From positions 1 to 5,200 of IMG/VR virus record IMGVR_UViG_3300045988_055167: a DNA stretch of 5,200 nt; one strand, given 5' to 3'. The DNA is from a virus. Positions 1 through 5,200 of the stretch are shown here, piece by piece (position 1 is the stretch's first letter; each line of letters starts with the position of its first letter). The position numbers and the translations under genes are program-made. The notes under the pieces are model-generated. The model had not been told where the DNA came from. It ran no database searches and worked only from the letters and a program-made list of their open reading frames with translations.

Positions 1-119
1 ACAGACAACTCTCCGCAGGGAAATACTGCCGCCTATTCTCTTACAGCGGATAGCGATGGCTCATTTTTGAAATCGTTTACAGAACATGGTATGGTCATTG
101 GCGTTATGTGCGCGCGCTA
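1..119 (+). repeat. Terminal redundancy, copy 1: identical to 5082..5200. A circular-genome wrap, not a biological DTR.
   Basis: Base-by-base comparison of 1-119 with 5082-5200 shows 119/119 identity. The offset of 5081 nt keeps the VP1 reading frame continuous. Confidence 0.95.
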
Positions 120-558
120 CAAGCATACCTACCAGCAGGGATTAGATAAGCGTTTTACTCGCAAAACGCGTTTTGATTACTATTGGCCGCTTCTTGCAAA
201 TTTAGGAGAACAGCCTATTTTGAACCGTGAAATCTATGCGCAAGGAACTGAAAAAGACGGCGAGGTATTCGGTTATCAGGAAGCATGGAGTGAATACCGT
301 TATAAGCCTGATATTTGTACTTCCGAGATGCGTTCAACTTATCCTCAGTCTCTTGACGTGTGGCATTTTGGCGATAATTACAAAACGCTTCCTACTCTTT
401 CGTCTGGATGGATACAGGAGGATATGAATAATATTAACCGCGCTTTGGCTGTTTCTAGTTCTGTAAGCAATCAGTTTTTTGCTGATATTTATATCAAAAA
501 TAAAGCTACGCGTGTTATGCCTGTTTATTCAATCCCAGGCATGCCAAGGACTCTGTAA
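1..558 (+). CDS. VP1: Major capsid protein VP1, C-terminal 185 aa (continuation of 3960..5081 across the circular junction). Stop TAA at 556-558.
   Basis: Frame 1 is open from position 1. The ORF-track fragment 67..558 (..FTEHGMVIGVMCARYKHTYQQGLDKRFTRKTRFDYYWPLL...NRALAVSSSVSNQFFADIYIKNKATRVMPVYSIPGMPRTL) is typical of the Microviridae F-protein C-terminus. Positions 1-119 are identical to 5082-5200, so this is the same gene as 3960..5200. Confidence 0.9.
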   Translation, partial: TDNSPQGNTAAYSLTADSDGSFLKSFTEHGMVIGVMCARYKHTYQQGLDKRFTRKTRFDYYWPLLANLGEQPILNREIYAQGTEKDGEVFGYQEAWSEYRYKPDICTSEMRSTYPQSLDVWHFGDNYKTLPTLSSGWIQEDMNNINRALAVSSSVSNQFFADIYIKNKATRVMPVYSIPGMPRTL

Positions 559-577
559 GTTTTTGCTTTTTATCTTT

Positions 578-599
578 CGCCCAGGTTGCAACCTGGGCG
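578..599 (+). promoter_or_regulatory. Perfect 22-nt palindrome / stem-loop (CGCCCAGGTT-GC-AACCTGGGCG) 20 nt downstream of the VP1 stop. Possible leaky terminator or mRNA 3' stabiliser.
   Basis: cgcccaggttgcaacctgggcg equals its own reverse complement: 9-10 bp GC-rich stem, 2-4 nt loop. It is followed by acgTTATTTg, which is only weakly U-rich, and then the VP2 RBS. Confidence 0.45.
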
Positions 600-623
600 A
601 CGTTATTTGAAAGGAGATTTAAT

Positions 624-1442
624 ATGGTTGATCCTTTAAAAACTGCTAAGCAGTATGCGGCTTATAATAATTCGTTATATCAGTCTAATACTCGACAGGC
701 TCAAGCGTTCAACGCCGCTGAGGCGGCGAAGAACCGTGATTGGCAGGAGCGTATGTCCAATTCTGCACATCAAAGAGAAGTTGCGGATTTGAAAAAGGCA
801 GGCCTTAACCCCGTCCTGTCTGCAGGCGGTCAAGGTGCCGCTACAGGTTCAGGCGCATCTGCCTCTAGCGAAGCTGCGAATGTAGATACATCGATGCCTC
901 AAGCTGTCATTGACATGGCAGAAGCACAGTTATCTAGTGCTACCGCTTTACAGCAGACCGCAATGACTACGCAGTCTAATATGGCGCAAGCTGTTCTTAA
1001 GTCTAATACTGATAAATATGTTGCTGGTTTACAATACAAGCTTCAAAAATATAAGCATGATAATCCTTCTGCCGATACTGTTGGCGGACAGTTTTCTCGT
1101 TTTCCTGATTTCCTTAAAATTGCTACTAAGTCCACTTTGGATTTTGTTGACTGGGTTGGAAAAGGACTTGAGAAAGCTGGATTTGATACTACTGGTTCCA
1201 AGAAGAAGAAAGCCGTTACAGGCTCTTCTGCTCGTGGTGTTAAAGGTTATAAGAATATTGACGAACTCATTGCTGATATTCCTGTTTACGATGAAAAAGG
1301 TCGTTTGATTTCTGGCGGTAAACAGAGAAAGAATGAAGCTCGCTTGAATCTTGGCTCTAAGTCATCAAATTCACCACTTGGTAGTAAATATCGCTTTGAT
1401 ACAATGGCTAGGTATCGCAGTAGTAAAAAACGTAAAAAATAA
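624..1442 (+). CDS. VP2: VP2 minor capsid / DNA pilot protein (phiX174 H-like), 272 aa
   Basis: ATG 624 with GAAAGGAGAT (AGGAG 612-616, 7-nt spacer). Contains the box WQERMSNSAHQREVADLKKAGLNPVLSAGG, which I recall as the conserved core of gokushovirus VP2. The rest is Ala/Gln/Ser-rich and low-complexity with a polybasic C-terminal tail (SSKKRKK), as is typical of pilot proteins. Position is immediately downstream of VP1. Confidence 0.85.
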   Translation: MVDPLKTAKQYAAYNNSLYQSNTRQAQAFNAAEAAKNRDWQERMSNSAHQREVADLKKAGLNPVLSAGGQGAATGSGASASSEAANVDTSMPQAVIDMAEAQLSSATALQQTAMTTQSNMAQAVLKSNTDKYVAGLQYKLQKYKHDNPSADTVGGQFSRFPDFLKIATKSTLDFVDWVGKGLEKAGFDTTGSKKKKAVTGSSARGVKGYKNIDELIADIPVYDEKGRLISGGKQRKNEARLNLGSKSSNSPLGSKYRFDTMARYRSSKKRKK

Positions 1443-1451
1443 CACGACACG

Positions 1452-1650
1452 ACGAATTAAACGACGTGACGTGAATAATTCGTTTTTATTGATGTTTTCT
1501 AAAACGCAGGACTTGTTCCTGCGTTTCCCCTAGGGGACTGGGGGATGGAGTCCCCCAGCCGGCTCTGCCGGGCACCTTTCCCCTCTTGATGGAAAGGTGC
1601 TAGGTGACACCTAACTAACAGTTAGTGATCACCGCGGTGAGACCGCGCCG
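1452..1650 (+). promoter_or_regulatory. Cluster of at least six stem-loops in the VP2-VP4 intergenic region. Candidate complementary-strand origin and/or terminators.
   Basis: Hairpins read directly from the sequence: 1452-1459/1476-1483 (acgaatta/taattcgt, 8 bp, followed by TTTTTATT). 1502-1511/1517-1526 (aaacgcagga/tcctgcgttt, 10 bp, loop cttgt). Palindrome ccccTAgggg at 1527-1536. 1538-1545/1551-1558 (ctggggga/tcccccag, 8 bp, loop tggag). Palindrome agccggct at 1557-1564. 1572-1581/1591-1600 (gcacctttcc/ggaaaggtgc, 10 bp, 9-nt loop). Composite 1603-1633 (ggtga..ctaact-aac-agttag..tcacc). Palindrome tcaccgcggtga at 1629-1640 and cgcgg-tgaga-ccgcg at 1633-1647. This is a local GC-rich island. 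Confidence 0.55.
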
Positions 1651-1660
1651 TAAGGCTTAC

Positions 1661-1689
1661 TTGAAAATTATAGAAAGGATTGATATAAT
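1661..1689 (+). promoter_or_regulatory. Sigma70-like promoter consensus TTGAAA-N17-TATAAT overlapping the VP4 translation start. Functional status doubtful.
   Basis: ttgaaa 1661-1666, 17-nt spacer, tataat 1684-1689. The predicted TSS (about 1696) falls downstream of the VP4 ATG (1691), which is inconsistent with serving VP4 unless VP4 starts later. May be a chance match in AT-rich sequence. Confidence 0.2.
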
Positions 1690-1690
1690 T

Positions 1691-2701
1691 ATGACGTGCT
1701 ACCATCCATTAAAGGCGTTTGCTACAGGAGAAAGGACTAAAAATGGAAAGATTAGTTATATTGTTACTGGCTACGATGCGCAAGCTATTATCATTGACGG
1801 GAAAGGTCATCGTACTGTGGTTGATTATAATCCTGAGTCTCGTGGTGATAAAGTTCTTCGTGATCCCATAGAGATACCATGTGGTAAGTGTTTTGGCTGT
1901 CGTTTGAAGCGTGCTAGAGATTGGTCTGTTCGCATGATGCTCGAATCAGAGTATCATGATGAAAATTGGTTTGTTACGCTTACATATAATAATGAACATT
2001 TACCTATGAATGAGTATATTGATGATGATGGTGTTATTCAGTTGAAATCTACGCTTTGTAAGCGTGATCTTCAATTATTTTGGAAGCGTTTACGTAAAAA
2101 ACAAGATATCAGATATTATGCCTGTGGTGAGTATGGGACAAGGACTGCGCGCCCTCATTATCACGCTGTTATCTTTGGACTCCATCTTGATCCAGATCGG
2201 CTTGTTGAGTACCGTTCACAACCTTTTCAGTTATGGACTTGTCCTGAACTTGAGGAAATTTGGAAGTGCGGATATGTTGTAGTCGGCAAGGTTACTCAAG
2301 AATCTTGTGAATATACTGCTCGGTACTGCATGAAGAAGCTTAACGGCTCTGCCGCTGAAATTTACGATCAATTTAATTTTATTCCCGAATTTTCATCTAT
2401 GAGTTTAAAGCCCGCGATTGGTCGCCAATGGTTTGACGATCATGCTTTTGATATTTACCCAAAAGATGAAATTCAATTACCTAAAGGACGTTTAGTGACA
2501 CCACCTAGATATTTTGACCAGTGCATGGAAAAATTGGATGAGGATTTGATGGTATCCGTCAAGGATGAACGAAAGGACATCGCCGAAAAGCTTGAGCATG
2601 CTAGACTGCTTGAAACTGCTTTGTCTAAGAGTGATTATCTCAAGGTTGCAGAAGCGAATATGAAGCAAAAAATGAAGCGTAAAGTTCGCCCTCTTGATTA
2701 G
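1691..2701 (+). CDS. VP4: VP4 rolling-circle replication initiation protein (phiX174 A-like HUH endonuclease), 336 aa
   Basis: The ORF track starts at a TTG/GTG at 1625, but the conserved N-terminus MTCYHPLKAF (M-x-C-x-x-P-L) begins at ATG 1691, with AAAGGA at 1674-1679. Zinc-ribbon-like PCGKCFGCRL. RCR motif I FVTLTYN. Motif II PHYHAVIFG (HxH). Motif III EYTARYCMKK (YxxxY...K, dual catalytic tyrosines as in phiX A protein). Stop TAG 2699-2701. Confidence 0.9.
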   Translation: MTCYHPLKAFATGERTKNGKISYIVTGYDAQAIIIDGKGHRTVVDYNPESRGDKVLRDPIEIPCGKCFGCRLKRARDWSVRMMLESEYHDENWFVTLTYNNEHLPMNEYIDDDGVIQLKSTLCKRDLQLFWKRLRKKQDIRYYACGEYGTRTARPHYHAVIFGLHLDPDRLVEYRSQPFQLWTCPELEEIWKCGYVVVGKVTQESCEYTARYCMKKLNGSAAEIYDQFNFIPEFSSMSLKPAIGRQWFDDHAFDIYPKDEIQLPKGRLVTPPRYFDQCMEKLDEDLMVSVKDERKDIAEKLEHARLLETALSKSDYLKVAEANMKQKMKRKVRPLD

Positions 2702-2765
2702 TTTGAATTTTTTCAAAAATAATTATGCCTTAATTATTGATTATAGGAATAGTTTTTGATAAGAT

Positions 2766-2797
2766 AAGAGTAACAAAAATGTTGCTCTTATTTTTTT
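2766..2797 (+). terminator. Rho-independent terminator-like hairpin plus U-tract after VP4
   Basis: aagagtaac (2766-2774), loop aaaaat, then gttgctctt (2781-2789): a 9-bp stem with one G-U pair, followed by A then TTTTTTT (2791-2797). The RBS of the 78-aa ORF starts at 2798, immediately after the T-run, so the terminator must be leaky if it is real. Confidence 0.45.
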
Positions 2798-2810
2798 GAA
2801 AGGAGACGTT

Positions 2811-3047
2811 ATGAATGAAGAGAAAAAAAGTTGTCAGGAAATCGAAGGATCGGAAGTTGTTTCGCCGGACGGCGAACAAGACAAAGAAAATGAACGTCAG
2901 CCCGCCCACCTTCCGTGGAGGGATTCGTTTGTAAATTGGATGCATGATTATGGAGAGTTGATCTCGGAGATTGTCCTGATGTGTTGTGTAGCTGGTGTAT
3001 GTTATTCAATGGTTTGTTTAGTGGAAATCATTTCACTGTTTGCTTAA
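2811..3047 (+). CDS. Hypothetical small tail-anchored membrane protein, 78 aa. Acidic N-terminal domain plus a C-terminal Cys-rich hydrophobic helix.
   Basis: ATG 2811 preceded by GAAAGGAGAC (AGGAG 2801-2805, 5-nt spacer), the same 9-mer seen upstream of VP1 and VP2. The ORF-track start at 2796 is a TTG and less likely. Sequence MNEEKKSCQEIEGSEVVSPDGEQDKENERQPAHLPWRDSFVNWMHDYGELISEIVLMCCVAGVCYSMVCLVEIISLFA. Residues 53-78 form a predicted transmembrane segment. The stop TAA (3045-3047) is immediately followed by the AGGAGG RBS of the next gene, suggesting translational coupling. No homolog recalled. Confidence 0.55.
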   Translation: MNEEKKSCQEIEGSEVVSPDGEQDKENERQPAHLPWRDSFVNWMHDYGELISEIVLMCCVAGVCYSMVCLVEIISLFA

Positions 3048-3059
3048 GGAGGTCTATTG

Positions 3060-3335
3060 ATGAAAAGTCCTATTTTTACTGTAAAAGATAATTTAGTTGG
3101 TTTTAATTCGCCGTATATCCGTATGAATGAACGCGTTGCTATTCGCGAGTTTCGAACTATGATTGATGATCTCGATGATAAAGGCGATCATTCTGTTTTT
3201 GATTTAGGTTTGTACTGTGTTGGTACTTTTGATTTGGAGACAGGTGTTATTGAATCCCATGATCCGCAGGTCGTTCTTCTTGCTACGCAGTGGTTGACGT
3301 TATCTCCTAAAGAGGTAGGTGAGATTGATGATTAG
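3060..3335 (+). CDS. VP5: Conserved gokushovirus small protein (VP5-like), 91 aa
   Basis: ATG 3060 with AAGGAGG at 3046-3052 (7-nt spacer). The pattern IFTVKDNLVGFNSPY...AIREF...DLGLYCVGTFDLETGVI matches the F-x-V-x-D-N-x-x-G-x-F...A-I-R-x-F...P-x-D-F-x-L-x-x-x-G-x-F-D-x-x-T-G-x-I consensus I recall for the small ORF5/VP5 family of Gokushovirinae. Stop TAG 3333-3335 overlaps the VP3 start by 8 nt. Confidence 0.62.
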   Translation: MKSPIFTVKDNLVGFNSPYIRMNERVAIREFRTMIDDLDDKGDHSVFDLGLYCVGTFDLETGVIESHDPQVVLLATQWLTLSPKEVGEIDD

Positions 3336-3870
3336 AACTCTTTTTGGCATTTTGCAGGATATCCCAGAGATGCGCGTTACTGTTTTTTCGTCCGCTGGTT
3401 CGCCTGTTAAAGATAAGTTTATCATGGAGGTTACGTCCAAAGGATATCCGAGTTTACGTAAGACTGGACAGCATAATGTTTATGATGAAATTCAGAGTTA
3501 TCGCGAAGGATGTGACCTTGCGGCAATTCTTCAGTCTTTTGGTAATGAATGTCCTAGGTTTGATCCTCTTTGTTTTGAACAAGCGGAGGCGTTTGTAAAT
3601 GATTTCAGTGATGTTTCTAGTCTCGGCGATCTTGTCAATGACGGTGAAGCTGTCAAACAGTTCTTTAATGAGCTTCCGTTGGAGGTTCGTAACTGTTTTG
3701 ATAATAGCGTTCATAAATTTGCTCGTGATTTTACTGGTGAAGGATTCCTTCAGACTCTTAGGCAGGCGTTTAATGTGCCAGATACTCCAGAGCCTTCCCC
3801 GAATCCTCCGACCCCTAGTGAACTTAATCCTGACAGCGGCTCTGTTGATCCTGATTCTGGCACTGCTTAA
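3328..3870 (+). CDS. VP3: VP3 internal scaffolding protein, about 180 aa, acidic, with a Pro/Ser/Asp-rich C-terminal tail
   Basis: The ORF is open from 3319 (GTG), but ATG 3328 with GGTGAG 5 nt upstream is the preferred start, and the exact start is uncertain. The segment YREGCDLAAILQSFGNEC...FNELPLEVRNCFDNSVHKFARDF resembles the Chlamydia-phage VP3 core as I recall it (FKDECDINQILKKYQRTG...FLTLPAHIREKFGNDP). Net acidic. Lies directly upstream of VP1. Stop TAA 3868-3870. Confidence 0.7.
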   Translation: MIRTLFGILQDIPEMRVTVFSSAGSPVKDKFIMEVTSKGYPSLRKTGQHNVYDEIQSYREGCDLAAILQSFGNECPRFDPLCFEQAEAFVNDFSDVSSLGDLVNDGEAVKQFFNELPLEVRNCFDNSVHKFARDFTGEGFLQTLRQAFNVPDTPEPSPNPPTPSELNPDSGSVDPDSGTA

Positions 3871-3918
3871 TCTTATATTCATTATTATTGTGTTTTCCAT
3901 GTTTTTCATTTTTGGTTA

Positions 3919-3936
3919 AGGGGGCGGAAGCCCCCT
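3919..3936 (+). promoter_or_regulatory. GC-rich stem-loop with a GNRA-type loop (AGGGGGC-GGAA-GCCCCCT) between VP3 and VP1, 10 nt upstream of the VP1 RBS
   Basis: agggggc / gccccct form a 7-bp G/C stem with tetraloop ggaa. It shares the G5/C5 stem character of the 1538-1558 hairpin. Position is just downstream of the VP3 stop; may be a leaky terminator, an RNA stabiliser, or a protein/packaging recognition element. Confidence 0.45.
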
Positions 3937-3959
3937 CTTCCGTATAGAAAGGAGATCAA

Positions 3960-5200
3960 ATGTTAGATAATAACTCAAAATTTAGTTACGTTCCTGGAAC
4001 GCGCGCAAGTCGTTCTATTTTTGATTTGAGTAACAGTGTTAAAACGTCATTCGATGCCGCCCAGCTCGTTCCTTTTTACTATGAGGAAGTTCTGCCCGGA
4101 GATACTTTTAATCTCGAAACGAATCTCATTGCCCGTATGCAGACTCTTGTTGCTCCTGTAATGGATGATCTTTACCTTGATTTCTTCTATTTTTTCGTCC
4201 CTAACAGAATCGTTTGGGATCATTGGAAGGAATTTATGGGTGAAAATACGAAGTCGGCATGGTACCCGGAAACGGAGTACAACGTGCCGCAGATTTCGGT
4301 CGCTCCATCTAAATCTGTAGCCGCTAAGTCTGTAGCGGACTATTTCGGCATTCCGCCGATTACTGTTCCGCAGGGTGAAAAGAACGCTTTCACTTTTTCC
4401 GCCCTTCCTTTCCGCGCCTACGCGGAAATCTGGAATGAATGGTTCAGAGACGAAAATCTGCAGGATCCAGTTCTTGTGGATCACGGAGATTCTACGCATA
4501 CATATGACGCAAATTCCGCTGTAGATGGTGGTGCTTTGCTTTATGCAAATAAGTACCATGACTATTTCACGAGTGCTCTTCCTTCGCCGCAGAAGGGCGC
4601 AGATGTGACAATCCCTATTGGTACTATTGCGCCTGTATATCCTACTAATGCGTCACAGCTCGGTAATGTTGAGAAGACATACCCTGTTTCTGTTCTTGAG
4701 TGGCGTAACTCTAATGATGCTGCCCTTCCGGCTCGTGGTGGTTTAGGTATTTTAGGATCTGGTGCTACTGATCCGTCCGGTTTGGCTGGTGTTACGTTTC
4801 TTGATCAGGAAGATAATGCTGGTATTTCCGGTAGTCCATATCCATCTAATCTGATCGCAGATATCGGATCAATTCCTTCTACATCTATCAATCAGCTTCG
4901 TTTGGCGTTTGCAACACAGGCTCTTTTAGAGAAAGATGCTCGTGGTGGAACTCGTTATCGTGAGATTATTAAGTCTCATTTTGCGACTAACTCCCCAGAT
5001 GCTCGCCAGCAGGTTCCAGAGCTTTTGTCATATAATCGTGTCCCGATCCAGATCAATCAGGTGGTTCAGAATTCGTCTAGTACAGACAACTCTCCGCAGG
5101 GAAATACTGCCGCCTATTCTCTTACAGCGGATAGCGATGGCTCATTTTTGAAATCGTTTACAGAACATGGTATGGTCATTGGCGTTATGTGCGCGCGCTA
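3960..5200 (+). CDS. VP1: Major capsid protein VP1 (phiX174 F-like jelly roll), N-terminal 413 codons. The ORF runs off the window end with no stop and continues in frame across the circular junction into 1..558; 5082..5200 duplicates 1..119. Full gene = 3960..5081 + 1..558 = 559 aa.
   Basis: ATG at 3960 preceded by GAAAGGAGAT (AGGAG 3950-3954, 5-nt spacer). Translation MLDNNSKFSYVPGTRASRSIFDLSNSVKTSFDAAQLVPFYYEEVLPGDTFNLETNLIARMQTLVAPVMDDLYLDFFYFFVPNRIVWDHWKEF... is the highly conserved gokushovirus VP1 N-terminus. No in-frame stop through 5200. The frame is continuous with ORF 1..558 once the 5081-nt period is taken into account. It is missing from the ORF track only because it has no stop inside the window. 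Confidence 0.93.
   Translation, partial: MLDNNSKFSYVPGTRASRSIFDLSNSVKTSFDAAQLVPFYYEEVLPGDTFNLETNLIARMQTLVAPVMDDLYLDFFYFFVPNRIVWDHWKEFMGENTKSAWYPETEYNVPQISVAPSKSVAAKSVADYFGIPPITVPQGEKNAFTFSALPFRAYAEIWNEWFRDENLQDPVLVDHGDSTHTYDANSAVDGGALLYANKYHDYFTSALPSPQKGADVTIPIGTIAPVYPTNASQLGNVEKTYPVSVLEWRNSNDAALPARGGLGILGSGATDPSGLAGVTFLDQEDNAGISGSPYPSNLIADIGSIPSTSINQLRLAFATQALLEKDARGGTRYREIIKSHFATNSPDARQQVPELLSYNRVPIQINQVVQNSSSTDNSPQGNTAAYSLTADSDGSFLKSFTEHGMVIGVMCAR
5082..5200 (+). repeat. Terminal redundancy, copy 2: identical to 1..119.
   Basis: See copy 1. Confidence 0.95.

Follow-up and report, generated by a model that had tools for sequence, protein, structure and literature searches.

The viral-strand origin of the microviruses phiX174 and G4 is a sequence of 30 nt, CAACTTG|ATATTAATAACACTATAGACCAC (the bar marks the nick), that is cut by protein A; in the phiX174 record it reads CAACTTGATATTAATAACACTATAGACCAC and the origin is annotated at 4306, which is the A after the G. 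For the complementary strand, single-strand origins that depend on the host usually function in particular hosts only (PMC5703833), and mini-hairpins of the types C-GAA-G and C-GNNA-G occur at the primase sites of the phages G4, St-1 and alpha3; those at the primase start sites with the sequences C-GTTA-G and C-GAAA-G are bound poorly by the single-stranded DNA-binding protein, SSB (PMC13037366). In reekeekee- and roodoodoo-microviruses, hairpins have been tentatively linked to negative-strand initiation, a link stated by the authors as not certifiable (PMC9865509). Here we report on a circular gokushovirus genome (IMG/VR virus record IMGVR_UViG_3300045988_055167; the whole stretch of 5,200 nt that was analysed, positions 1 to 5,200 of the record, is referred to as the window), and in particular on the non-coding spacer between its VP2 and Rep (VP4) genes, where a sequence-only reading had noted a dense cluster of GC-rich hairpins and taken the cluster as a putative complementary-strand origin. 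One of these hairpins, H6, and the box that follows it on the 3' side (Table 1) form an element that is conserved among gokushoviruses, has a covarying stem, lies ahead of Rep and in nearly all genomes on the strand of the genes, and carries in its loop a motif like the nick site of phiX174 and G4, and the Rep encoded next to it has HUH and tyrosine motifs. We consider it likely that H6 together with the box is the viral-strand (+) origin of rolling-circle replication and that the spacer serves as a control region for replication and expression.

An intergenic hairpin and box conserved among gokushoviruses

When the spacer was compared with the GenBank phages by sensitive blastn, only 1572-1622 had counterparts; these are spread over many unrelated microviruses and nearly always lie in DNA without annotation. 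Judged by eye, the stem differs from genome to genome in these matches, the loop is conserved and so is the box after the stem. The element has the consensus GCACAGTTAC-yyTACTTGAT-GTAACTGTGC-TAGGTGACACC, and the consensus 44-mer is present in 227 GenBank records, all of them microviruses; an origin or stem-loop annotation over the element is found in none of the 60 matches listed of these 227. Viral contigs with the 15-mer of the box, GTGCTAGGTGACACC, number at least 119, and their length is 4-5.5 kb in nearly every case. The loop motif is CTCTTG|AT in the window (1583-1590) and TACTTG|AT in the consensus of the subfamily, and H6, in non-coding DNA, ends 91 nt before the Rep start codon.

The stem of the element is kept by pairing. 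Specifically, in an alignment of 102 distinct copies 91% of the cells over the ten pairs are paired, compared with at most 50% when the partners are shifted by one to three columns, and double-sided changes in H6 number 51 as opposed to 11.5 +/- 2.6 in shuffles, and none of 500 shuffles reached this number. From the alignment of distinct copies we built a covariance model, which gives one strong hit in the window (1565-1613, 55.6 bits, E = 5.6e-14). Applied to relatives that were found through the Rep protein alone, and thus independently of the DNA motif, the model gives strong hits in L003, L004, L005, L006, L008 and L009 and a partial hit in L010; in L011 the element was found by a search for motif and stem.

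Described phages carry the element as well. The model matches the Chlamydia phage Chp2 at 2900-2951, where the stem is wholly different (GCGTATAACAG/CTGTTATACGC), and the same design is seen by inspection in the Bdellovibrio phage phiMH2K (GTTCGGCTAC...CCCTACTTGTTGTAA...GTAGCCGAAC) and in the Spiroplasma phage SpV4 (GGGGCATAT...ATTACTTGTTATA...ATATGCCCC). Chp1 (L139, NC_001741) has GGGCTATAT-CCTCTTGGCT-ATATAGCCC at 2752-2790, followed by the box GAGCGACAC; its loop is a variant in which G replaces A after the predicted nick, and the element hairpin is not one of the four 'hairpin-like structures' annotated in its GenBank record. Among these phages, the hosts of which belong to three bacterial phyla, the stem sequences are entirely different, all still pair and the loop motif is common. 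In a further set of copies, chosen by their loop, a box of the type ...TGACACC or ...TGACGCA still follows at a fixed offset, which shows conservation of the box itself. Of the 116 genomes in which Rep was found, 114 have the element on the coding strand, and in these 114 the Rep start lies a median of ~183 nt downstream of the box.

A search of bacterial genomes with the 15-mer of the box gave mostly chance matches; the hairpin was present in 8 of 120, six of which are ~4-kb contigs binned into metagenome-assembled genomes (MAGs), and no host could be assigned to the window from this search. A 44-kb contig of an Alphaproteobacteria MAG from sheep rectum (L281, JAFXIF010000050.1) has a complete origin hairpin between gokushovirus Rep and VP1 homologues and may represent an integrated prophage with a different gene order. 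Another contig, L308, has the hairpin, and neither Rep nor VP1 was detected in it at E <= 1e-3.

The box of the window, TAGGTGACACCTA, is a near-perfect palindrome, and in enterogokushoviruses, which integrate, dif-like motifs are located in non-coding DNA or at the 5' end of VP4 (PMC7062461). The palindromes of the spacer might on these grounds be read as a site-specific recombination site, either dif-like and used by XerCD or an attP. We regard this as very improbable: the best matches of the window to four dif sequences (Escherichia coli, Bacillus subtilis, Vibrio cholerae and Haemophilus influenzae) agree at 16-18 of 28 positions, the mean for shuffled sequence being 17.3 and the maximum 19, all of these matches are outside the spacer, and neither the list of open reading frames (ORFs) nor Pfam revealed an integrase gene in the window.

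Likeness to the phiX174 and G4 nick site

From copies that had been selected on the box we derived a matrix of 14 columns, which spans the loop and the beginning of the 3' arm, and scanned both strands of phiX174 and G4 with it; as selection was on the box and not on the loop, the matrix columns were free to vary. The top hits, among ~10,800 and ~11,200 positions scanned, are at 4300 (+) in phiX174 and at 501 (+) in G4. These are the two known origins, and the register agrees with the annotated nick; a 10-column matrix ranks both first as well. From the register with phiX174 the nick in the window is therefore predicted to lie between G1588 and A1589.

The Rep of the window has an HUH motif, H156-Y-H158 (RPHYHAVIF), and a YxxxY motif, Y208/Y212 (EYTARY). 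The motifs of phiX174 protein A are RLHFHAV and FYVAKY, and a pairwise BLASTP comparison of the two proteins gives E = 7e-6 across the HUH region. As in hairpin-type HUH origins, there is thus an inverted repeat that covaries and bears the nick motif in its loop, with an HUH and tyrosine initiator encoded adjacent to it. Since the element is kept in phages of hosts from different phyla, recognition by the phage's own Rep fits better than recognition by the host priming machinery, single-strand origins being typically host-restricted (PMC5703833).

From the sequence we infer cleavage at G1588|A1589 and binding of Rep to the box, and the following course of events is proposed. H6 would expose CTCTTG|AT in its loop, and Rep, which has the HUH motif and two tyrosines, would bind the adjacent box, nick the + strand at the predicted site and remain linked to the 5' phosphate of A1589, leaving the 3' OH of G1588 to be extended by the host polymerase. 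After one round the second tyrosine would cut the regenerated hairpin in the displaced strand and the ends would be joined, giving a single-stranded circle.

Several points weigh against an origin of this kind or limit the comparison. Since the phiX174 and G4 origins are homologues, their two top ranks count as one observation. The likeness is confined to the nick decamer: GAC at +18 to +20 from the nick is common to both and is anecdotal, and a matrix of the box only ranks the 'key' sequence of phiX174 (CACTATAGACCAC) 1454 of 10,826, which is not above chance. The conserved box does lie at the same distance from the nick as the key (~18-30 nt on the 3' side), which, given this rank, does not establish homology of the two. 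The full 29-column matrix failed to recover the phiX174 origin, and because neither this matrix nor that of the box succeeded we do not claim homology for the 30-nt origin as a whole; judged by the matrices, the nick part alone is demonstrably similar. A covariance model that includes the hairpin has no hit in phiX174 or G4, and on reading the sequence (no fold was run) no hairpin is seen around their nick site. Moreover, the phiX174 origin is inside gene A and the element here is intergenic, so that the architecture differs. Most copies of the element were retrieved by DNA patterns derived from it, and their apparent uniformity is thereby inflated. Finally, a full-text search of the literature found no gokushovirus replication origin or origin hairpin described; the genome papers of Chp1, Chp2, SpV4 and phiMH2K were not covered by it and may already discuss the hairpin.

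Three genomes add a further difficulty. L004 (2934-2982; identical with the contig L246), L066 and L078 have the element in the VP2-Rep spacer, as is usual, and in antisense orientation to all of the genes; these copies could require that the antisense strand is packaged, or could be due to a loop flip within a long palindrome, as in H5 (see below). The hairpin in L004 has copies of the box on both sides and is therefore a long palindrome, asymmetric in its loop only. Inversion relative to the genes suggests that the element acts as DNA and is hard to reconcile with an mRNA element. It also argues against a structured non-coding RNA (ncRNA) or a ribozyme encoded in the spacer, which we think highly unlikely: the predicted RNA structure is strong, but it is so on both strands, which fold equally well, and it amounts to a series of simple Watson-Crick hairpins that lacks junctions and long-range pairs. 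No Rfam family was found at E < 1 in the window; the best in the spacer is sroD (E = 6.4, 17.8 bits compared with a gathering score of 50), and the spacer hits in general reach 13-18 bits where the thresholds are 34-50.

The flanking hairpins and the neighbouring features

The spacer comprises 248 nt (1443-1690) and is the longest non-coding stretch of the genome, although not, as the sequence-only reading had it, one of 190 nt and the only long one, since there are three others (559-623, 2702-2810 and 3871-3959), each with one hairpin. Folded as single-stranded DNA (ssDNA) it gives -62.6 kcal/mol, compared with -26.9 +/- 3.5 in 200 dinucleotide shuffles (z = -10.1; none as good), and the RNA folds of the + and - strands have z = -9.4 and -9.1, respectively. 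Nine independent local hairpins or palindromes (H1-H9, Table 1) follow one another, without a long-range fold or junctions. In a sliding DNA fold scan the eleven most stable 100-nt segments of the genome are all within the spacer (the most stable, 1501-1600, has -37.4 kcal/mol; genome mean -9.1, sd 4.9), and the spacer holds four of the eight inverted repeats of the window. It is also the most GC-rich part, with a GC content of 0.60 at 1501-1650 compared with ~0.35-0.47 in most coding segments. The dense GC-rich cluster is thus present where the sequence-only reading had placed it, and the expectation that it folds better than shuffled controls is borne out.

The nearest GenBank record is that of Dulem virus 193, from lemur faeces, the Rep of which is 56% identical to that of the window in its N-terminus. 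Metagenome contigs of IMG/VR and ENA include relatives with a 96-99% identical Rep; when the whole genome was compared with the GenBank phages by megablast, only short matches in VP1 and VP2 were obtained, and a close relative is therefore absent among these phages. The Rep-based scan of metagenomes yielded near-identical (96-99%) and distant (36-40%) relatives and none between, and because of this gap the covariation in H1-H5 and H7-H9 rests on few events.

Among the near-identical relatives the spacer is almost invariant, and H5 is the sole hypervariable spot (L001, L002, L240-L244), yet always a hairpin: CGCGGC-GTT-GCCGCG, the same with -AAC- or -AAT-, or GCGGT-AAC-GCCGC. The differences consist of a paired insertion that lengthens the stem and of a switch of the loop between GTT and its reverse complement AAC, which suggests hairpin inversion or template switching beside the origin. 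In H2 of L244 there is a compensatory change of A:T to T:A (AAATCGCAGGA...TCCTGCGATT), and in H1 of L242 A is changed to G, giving G-T. H3 is conserved in close relatives only, H4 is identical among these, and H9 is kept in all of them.

In the spacer of Dulem virus 193 eight hairpins follow in the same order (z = -7.8), the three upstream GC hairpins there not being alignable to H2-H5 by sequence; a different hairpin stands in place of H4, which has no sequence counterpart. Both arms of H1 are changed in a compensatory manner (CGCGACGCG...CGCGACGCG), H7 is kept with an inner compensatory change (TAACT/AGTTA to AAACT/AGTTT), CGCGCC-TAG-GGCGCG is found at the place of H8, and H9 reads GCC-GTTA-GGC. 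In several unrelated gokushoviruses GACACC of the box pairs with a downstream GGTGTC. The layout of the hairpins is thus kept despite turnover of the sequence and with compensatory changes, and we conclude that the cluster is selected as a structure, in agreement with the sequence-only reading, which had made conservation of structure in relatives a test (for this, the changes in H2 and H5 and the layout of Dulem virus 193 are relevant). H1-H5 upstream and H7-H9 downstream of the element are accessory elements kept for structure and lineage-specific in sequence.

The hairpin GGGGGC-GGAA-GCCCCC (3919-3936) between VP3 and VP1 has the loop GTAA in L001 and L002. The G5/C5 motif that it was thought to share with H4 (1538-1558) finds no support, as H4 lacks a counterpart in Dulem virus 193 and 3919-3936 belongs to the C-GNNA-G class. 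Such mini-hairpins stand at the primase sites of G4-like phages, and 3919-3936 is therefore a further candidate for minus-strand priming or stabilisation of mRNA.

Structure near the element extends to diverse genomes. In 72 of 111 the most structured 100-nt segment is centred at most 150 nt from the box. When the origin hairpin is left out, the 5' flank of the box exceeds the average of the same genome in structure (median z = -1.5; 74% of the genomes below -1), and the 3' flank does not (median z = +0.8). In the hairpin nearest the origin, loops closed by G...A (GNA, GNNA and GNNNA) number 35 as opposed to 2 for the reverse complements, and the hairpins adjacent to the origin are therefore selected on the + strand, as is the nick motif.

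These data bear on the proposal that the cluster is the complementary-strand (-) origin, in which the hairpins would stay folded on the SSB-coated virion strand and recruit host primase, PriA or RNA polymerase. The very strong ssDNA fold and an architecture kept in relatives despite sequence turnover are consistent with it, as are the structured flank on the 5' and not the 3' side of the nick hairpin and the strand asymmetry of the loops, and single-strand origins indeed function on one strand and are structured regions of ~160 nt (PMC5703833). Moreover, H9 (C-GTAA-G; C-GTTA-G in Dulem virus 193) is in the mini-hairpin class of the G4, St-1 and alpha3 primase start sites (PMC13037366), and a role as minus-strand origins has been suggested, with stated uncertainty, for hairpins that precede Rep in other clades of microviruses (PMC9865509). 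The asymmetry does not separate ssDNA from mRNA, however, since G...A loops stabilise RNA hairpins of the same sense too; most hairpins of the window (H2, H4, H5 and H7) have no such loop, and other intergenic hairpins, e.g. 3919-3936 with its GGAA loop, are equally good candidates. No CS-6 motif, TAGCG(T/A), as in origins of the ssoA type is present in 1443-1690, where the hairpins are short and independent and do not make up one long imperfect palindrome, and on reading, the spacer has no sequence similarity to the G4 oric. In G4 a CTG is located 6 nt after hairpin I; here H9 is followed by TTACTTGAAAA, with no CTG at this spacing, and the CTG triplets of the spacer are at 1519, 1538 and 1565, although the primase of the host may have another specificity. 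For the PriA (n' protein) hairpin site we know of no sequence consensus.

What speaks against such an origin for the cluster as a whole is that its sole subfamily-wide element, H6 with the box, matches the phiX174/G4 viral-strand nick site and is kept in phages of Chlamydia, Spiroplasma and Bdellovibrio, where a host-dependent origin would usually be host-restricted (PMC5703833). The sequence-only reading was correct in flagging the cluster, but it most probably attached the label to the wrong origin, and it missed the significance of H6. A minus-strand origin conflicts with the viral-strand origin reading at H6 and the box and is compatible with it when limited to H1-H5, H8 and H9. We regard such an origin as rather unlikely; for the flanking hairpins priming is possible, the support being circumstantial because the loops also stabilise RNA, most hairpins of the window lack them and there is neither a CS-6 motif nor a CTG at the G4 spacing.

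The flanking hairpins could also act on RNA, by terminating or pausing transcription or by protecting the 3' end of the late VP1-VP2 message, and would insulate Rep from read-through in a circle on which all genes have the same direction; the counterpart in phiX174 would be the terminator and promoter of its H-A intergenic region. The + strand folds as exceptionally as RNA as it does as DNA, the spacer is located between the last late gene and Rep and is followed by the best promoter match of the genome, the phiX174 record has a transcription start annotated at 3962 in the corresponding H-A intergenic region, loops of the GNRA type (GTAA and GGAA) stabilise RNA hairpins, and the strand asymmetry of the loops agrees with the sense of the mRNA. 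A terminator scan called nothing on either strand of 1443-1690, though, the GC-rich stems are not followed by T-runs, nine hairpins exceed what termination needs, and the C-G-closed GAA triloops that are common beside the origin in other genomes are stable in DNA rather than in RNA (PMC13037366). The sole T-run follows the weak and non-conserved AT-rich hairpin at 1452-1490, which had been suggested as a terminator of VP2 transcripts; this suggestion is not upheld, as its stem (1452-1484) has too few G-C pairs, is broken in L002, L240, L242 and L243 and is absent in Dulem virus 193, and the overlapping and competing H1 is the conserved one. The role in transcription (termination or insulation before the promoter) thus appears rather doubtful, as does minus-strand priming; for the flanking hairpins the two are equally plausible and do not exclude each other.

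Table 1. Features of the window (folding energies in kcal/mol)
Feature	Position	Strand	Description
VP1 capsid	3960 across junction to 558	+	Pfam Phage_F
VP2	624-1442	+	stop codon 1440-1442
H1	1443-1473	+	CG-rich pentamer repeats CACGACACGACG ... CGACGTGACGTG; -8.6; in minimum-energy fold; starts right after VP2 stop
Alternative AT-rich hairpin with T-run	1452-1490	+	ACGAATTA...TAATTCGT; -6.1
H2	1502-1526	+	perfect 10-bp hairpin AAACGCAGGA-CTTGT-TCCTGCGTTT; inverted repeat I6; -10.5
H3	1527-1536		palindrome CCCCTAGGGG, by reading; marginal hairpin, -0.9
H4	1538-1558	+	8-bp hairpin CTGGGGGA-TGGAG-TCCCCCAG; -8.3
H5	1559-1571	+	CCGGC-TCT-GCCGG, GC-rich, adjoins H6 on 5' side; -4.6
H6, putative origin hairpin	1572-1600	+	arms GCACCTTTCC (1572-1581) and GGAAAGGTGC (1591-1600), loop CCTCTTGAT (1582-1590); -9.7
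3' box	1601-1611	+	TAGGTGACACC; candidate Rep-binding sequence; core TGAC(A/G)C at fixed distance from predicted nick
H7	1603-1633	+	GGTGACAC-C-TAACT-AAC-AGTTA-GTG-A-TCACC; 5' arm is the box; -7.7
H8	1634-1646	+	GCGGT-GAG-ACCGC; -4.7
H9	1647-1656	+	mini-hairpin GCC-GTAA-GGC, C-GNNA-G class
Sigma-70-type promoter match	1661-1689	+	TTGAAA-17 nt-TATAAT, TG before -10; 11/12 plus extended -10
Shine-Dalgarno-like AAAGGA	1674-1679	+	upstream of Rep ATG
Rep (VP4)	1691-2701	+	ATG at 1691; Pfam PF23343, E = 1.5e-18
Small ORF	2811-3047	+	78 aa
VP5	3060-3335	+	PF20577
VP3 scaffold	3328-3870	+	Chlamy_scaf

The window represents a 5081-nt circular genome, its two ends overlapping by 119 nt (1-119 equals 5082-5200), and all of the genes are on the + strand. 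The 3' end of the spacer is made up of a promoter-like sequence and the ribosome-binding site of Rep. The promoter match is the best of the window and ends one base before the Rep ATG, so that a transcript starting from it would begin within the first Rep codons; TTG of the -35 region and TATAAT are kept in relatives including Dulem virus 193, and we regard the sequence as a putative promoter. A second ACTTGA, at 1659 just after H9, was considered as a second nick site and rejected, as the motif is not enriched downstream of the box in 111 genomes; it is therefore treated as part of the -35 region.

Elsewhere in the genome, a perfect 12-bp palindrome 3' of VP1 (577-600) is followed by a T-rich tail and was called terminator-like, and an AT-rich hairpin with a T-run 3' of Rep (2754-2801) is probably the Rep terminator. 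The product of the small ORF has no Pfam match, is acidic in its N-terminal half with a hydrophobic stretch C-terminally, unlike the basic VP8 of other gokushoviruses, and may be a membrane or lysis protein. The Pro/Ser-rich C-terminus of VP3 contains a 21-nt imperfect tandem duplication (3824-3865, 71% identity).

Comparison with described origins

Gokushoviruses are among the most abundant ssDNA phages of gut and aquatic viromes. It is conceivable, if somewhat doubtful, that the Gokushovirinae share one unannotated origin module, in which a covarying hairpin with (T)ACTTG|AT, the TGAC(A/G)C box and G...A-loop hairpins on the 5' side would make up a compact plus-and-minus origin by rep, as in rolling-circle plasmids; the inversions in L004, L066 and L078 would then mean that some members package the antisense strand. 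If the assignment of H6 and the box as the viral-strand origin holds, it would provide a defined nick site that can be tested biochemically, a natural zero coordinate for circular gokushovirus genomes, a DNA marker (hairpin plus box) for gokushovirus genomes and prophages, and a cis element for building replicons or reverse-genetics systems, and one nick motif would link the in-gene origin of phiX174, which has no obvious hairpin, with the hairpin-loop origins of plasmids and of circular Rep-encoding single-stranded (CRESS) DNA viruses. The flanking hairpins and the three inverted cases pose the questions of where the minus strand is primed and which strand is packaged.

Compared with described minus-strand signals (the oric of G4, St-1 and alpha3, the PriA site of phiX174, and ssoA and ssoU), the spacer is likewise a cluster of stable hairpins, intergenic and on the virion strand, with a strand-specific polarity, and H9 (C-GTAA-G) resembles the mini-hairpins GCGAAAGC and GCGTTAGC at the primer sites of G4, St-1 and alpha3 (PMC13037366). 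It differs from the described signals in that its hairpins are lineage-specific. The hairpins of reekeekee- and roodoodoo-microviruses (PMC9865509) share with H6 the intergenic position before Rep, compensatory substitutions and a loop more conserved than the stem; judged by their description they are set apart, belonging to other clades, having other sequences and no reported phiX174-like nick motif.

With the double-strand origins of rolling-circle plasmids and the stem-loops of CRESS-DNA viruses the element has in common that the nick site is in the loop of a hairpin or cruciform beside an initiator-binding sequence and that the origin is just upstream of rep, and in both settings a structured region of one-strand polarity, like a single-strand origin, is nearby (PMC5703833; PMC5714925). 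The initiators differ, the Rep of the window being PF23343 and not Rep_1 or Viral_Rep, and the plasmid copy-control elements are lacking here. The nick sequence of pC194/pUB110-type plasmids, CTTGATA, may be similar.

The origins of phiX174 and G4 (Bullavirinae) belong to the same virus family, are served by homologous initiators and have the same nick motif, ACTTG|AT. In these as in the gokushovirus element the motif is on the strand of gene sense and conserved sequence follows ~10-23 nt 3' of the nick. The gokushovirus motif, in contrast, is in the loop of a covarying hairpin of 9-10 bp, and where its 3' stem arm stands phiX174 has an AT-rich spacer; nor is the 3' box (T/G)TGAC(A/G)C detectably related to the phiX174 key. 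The predicted phiX174-type nick site within an intergenic hairpin is thus a variant architecture of the same kind of origin and not the same element.

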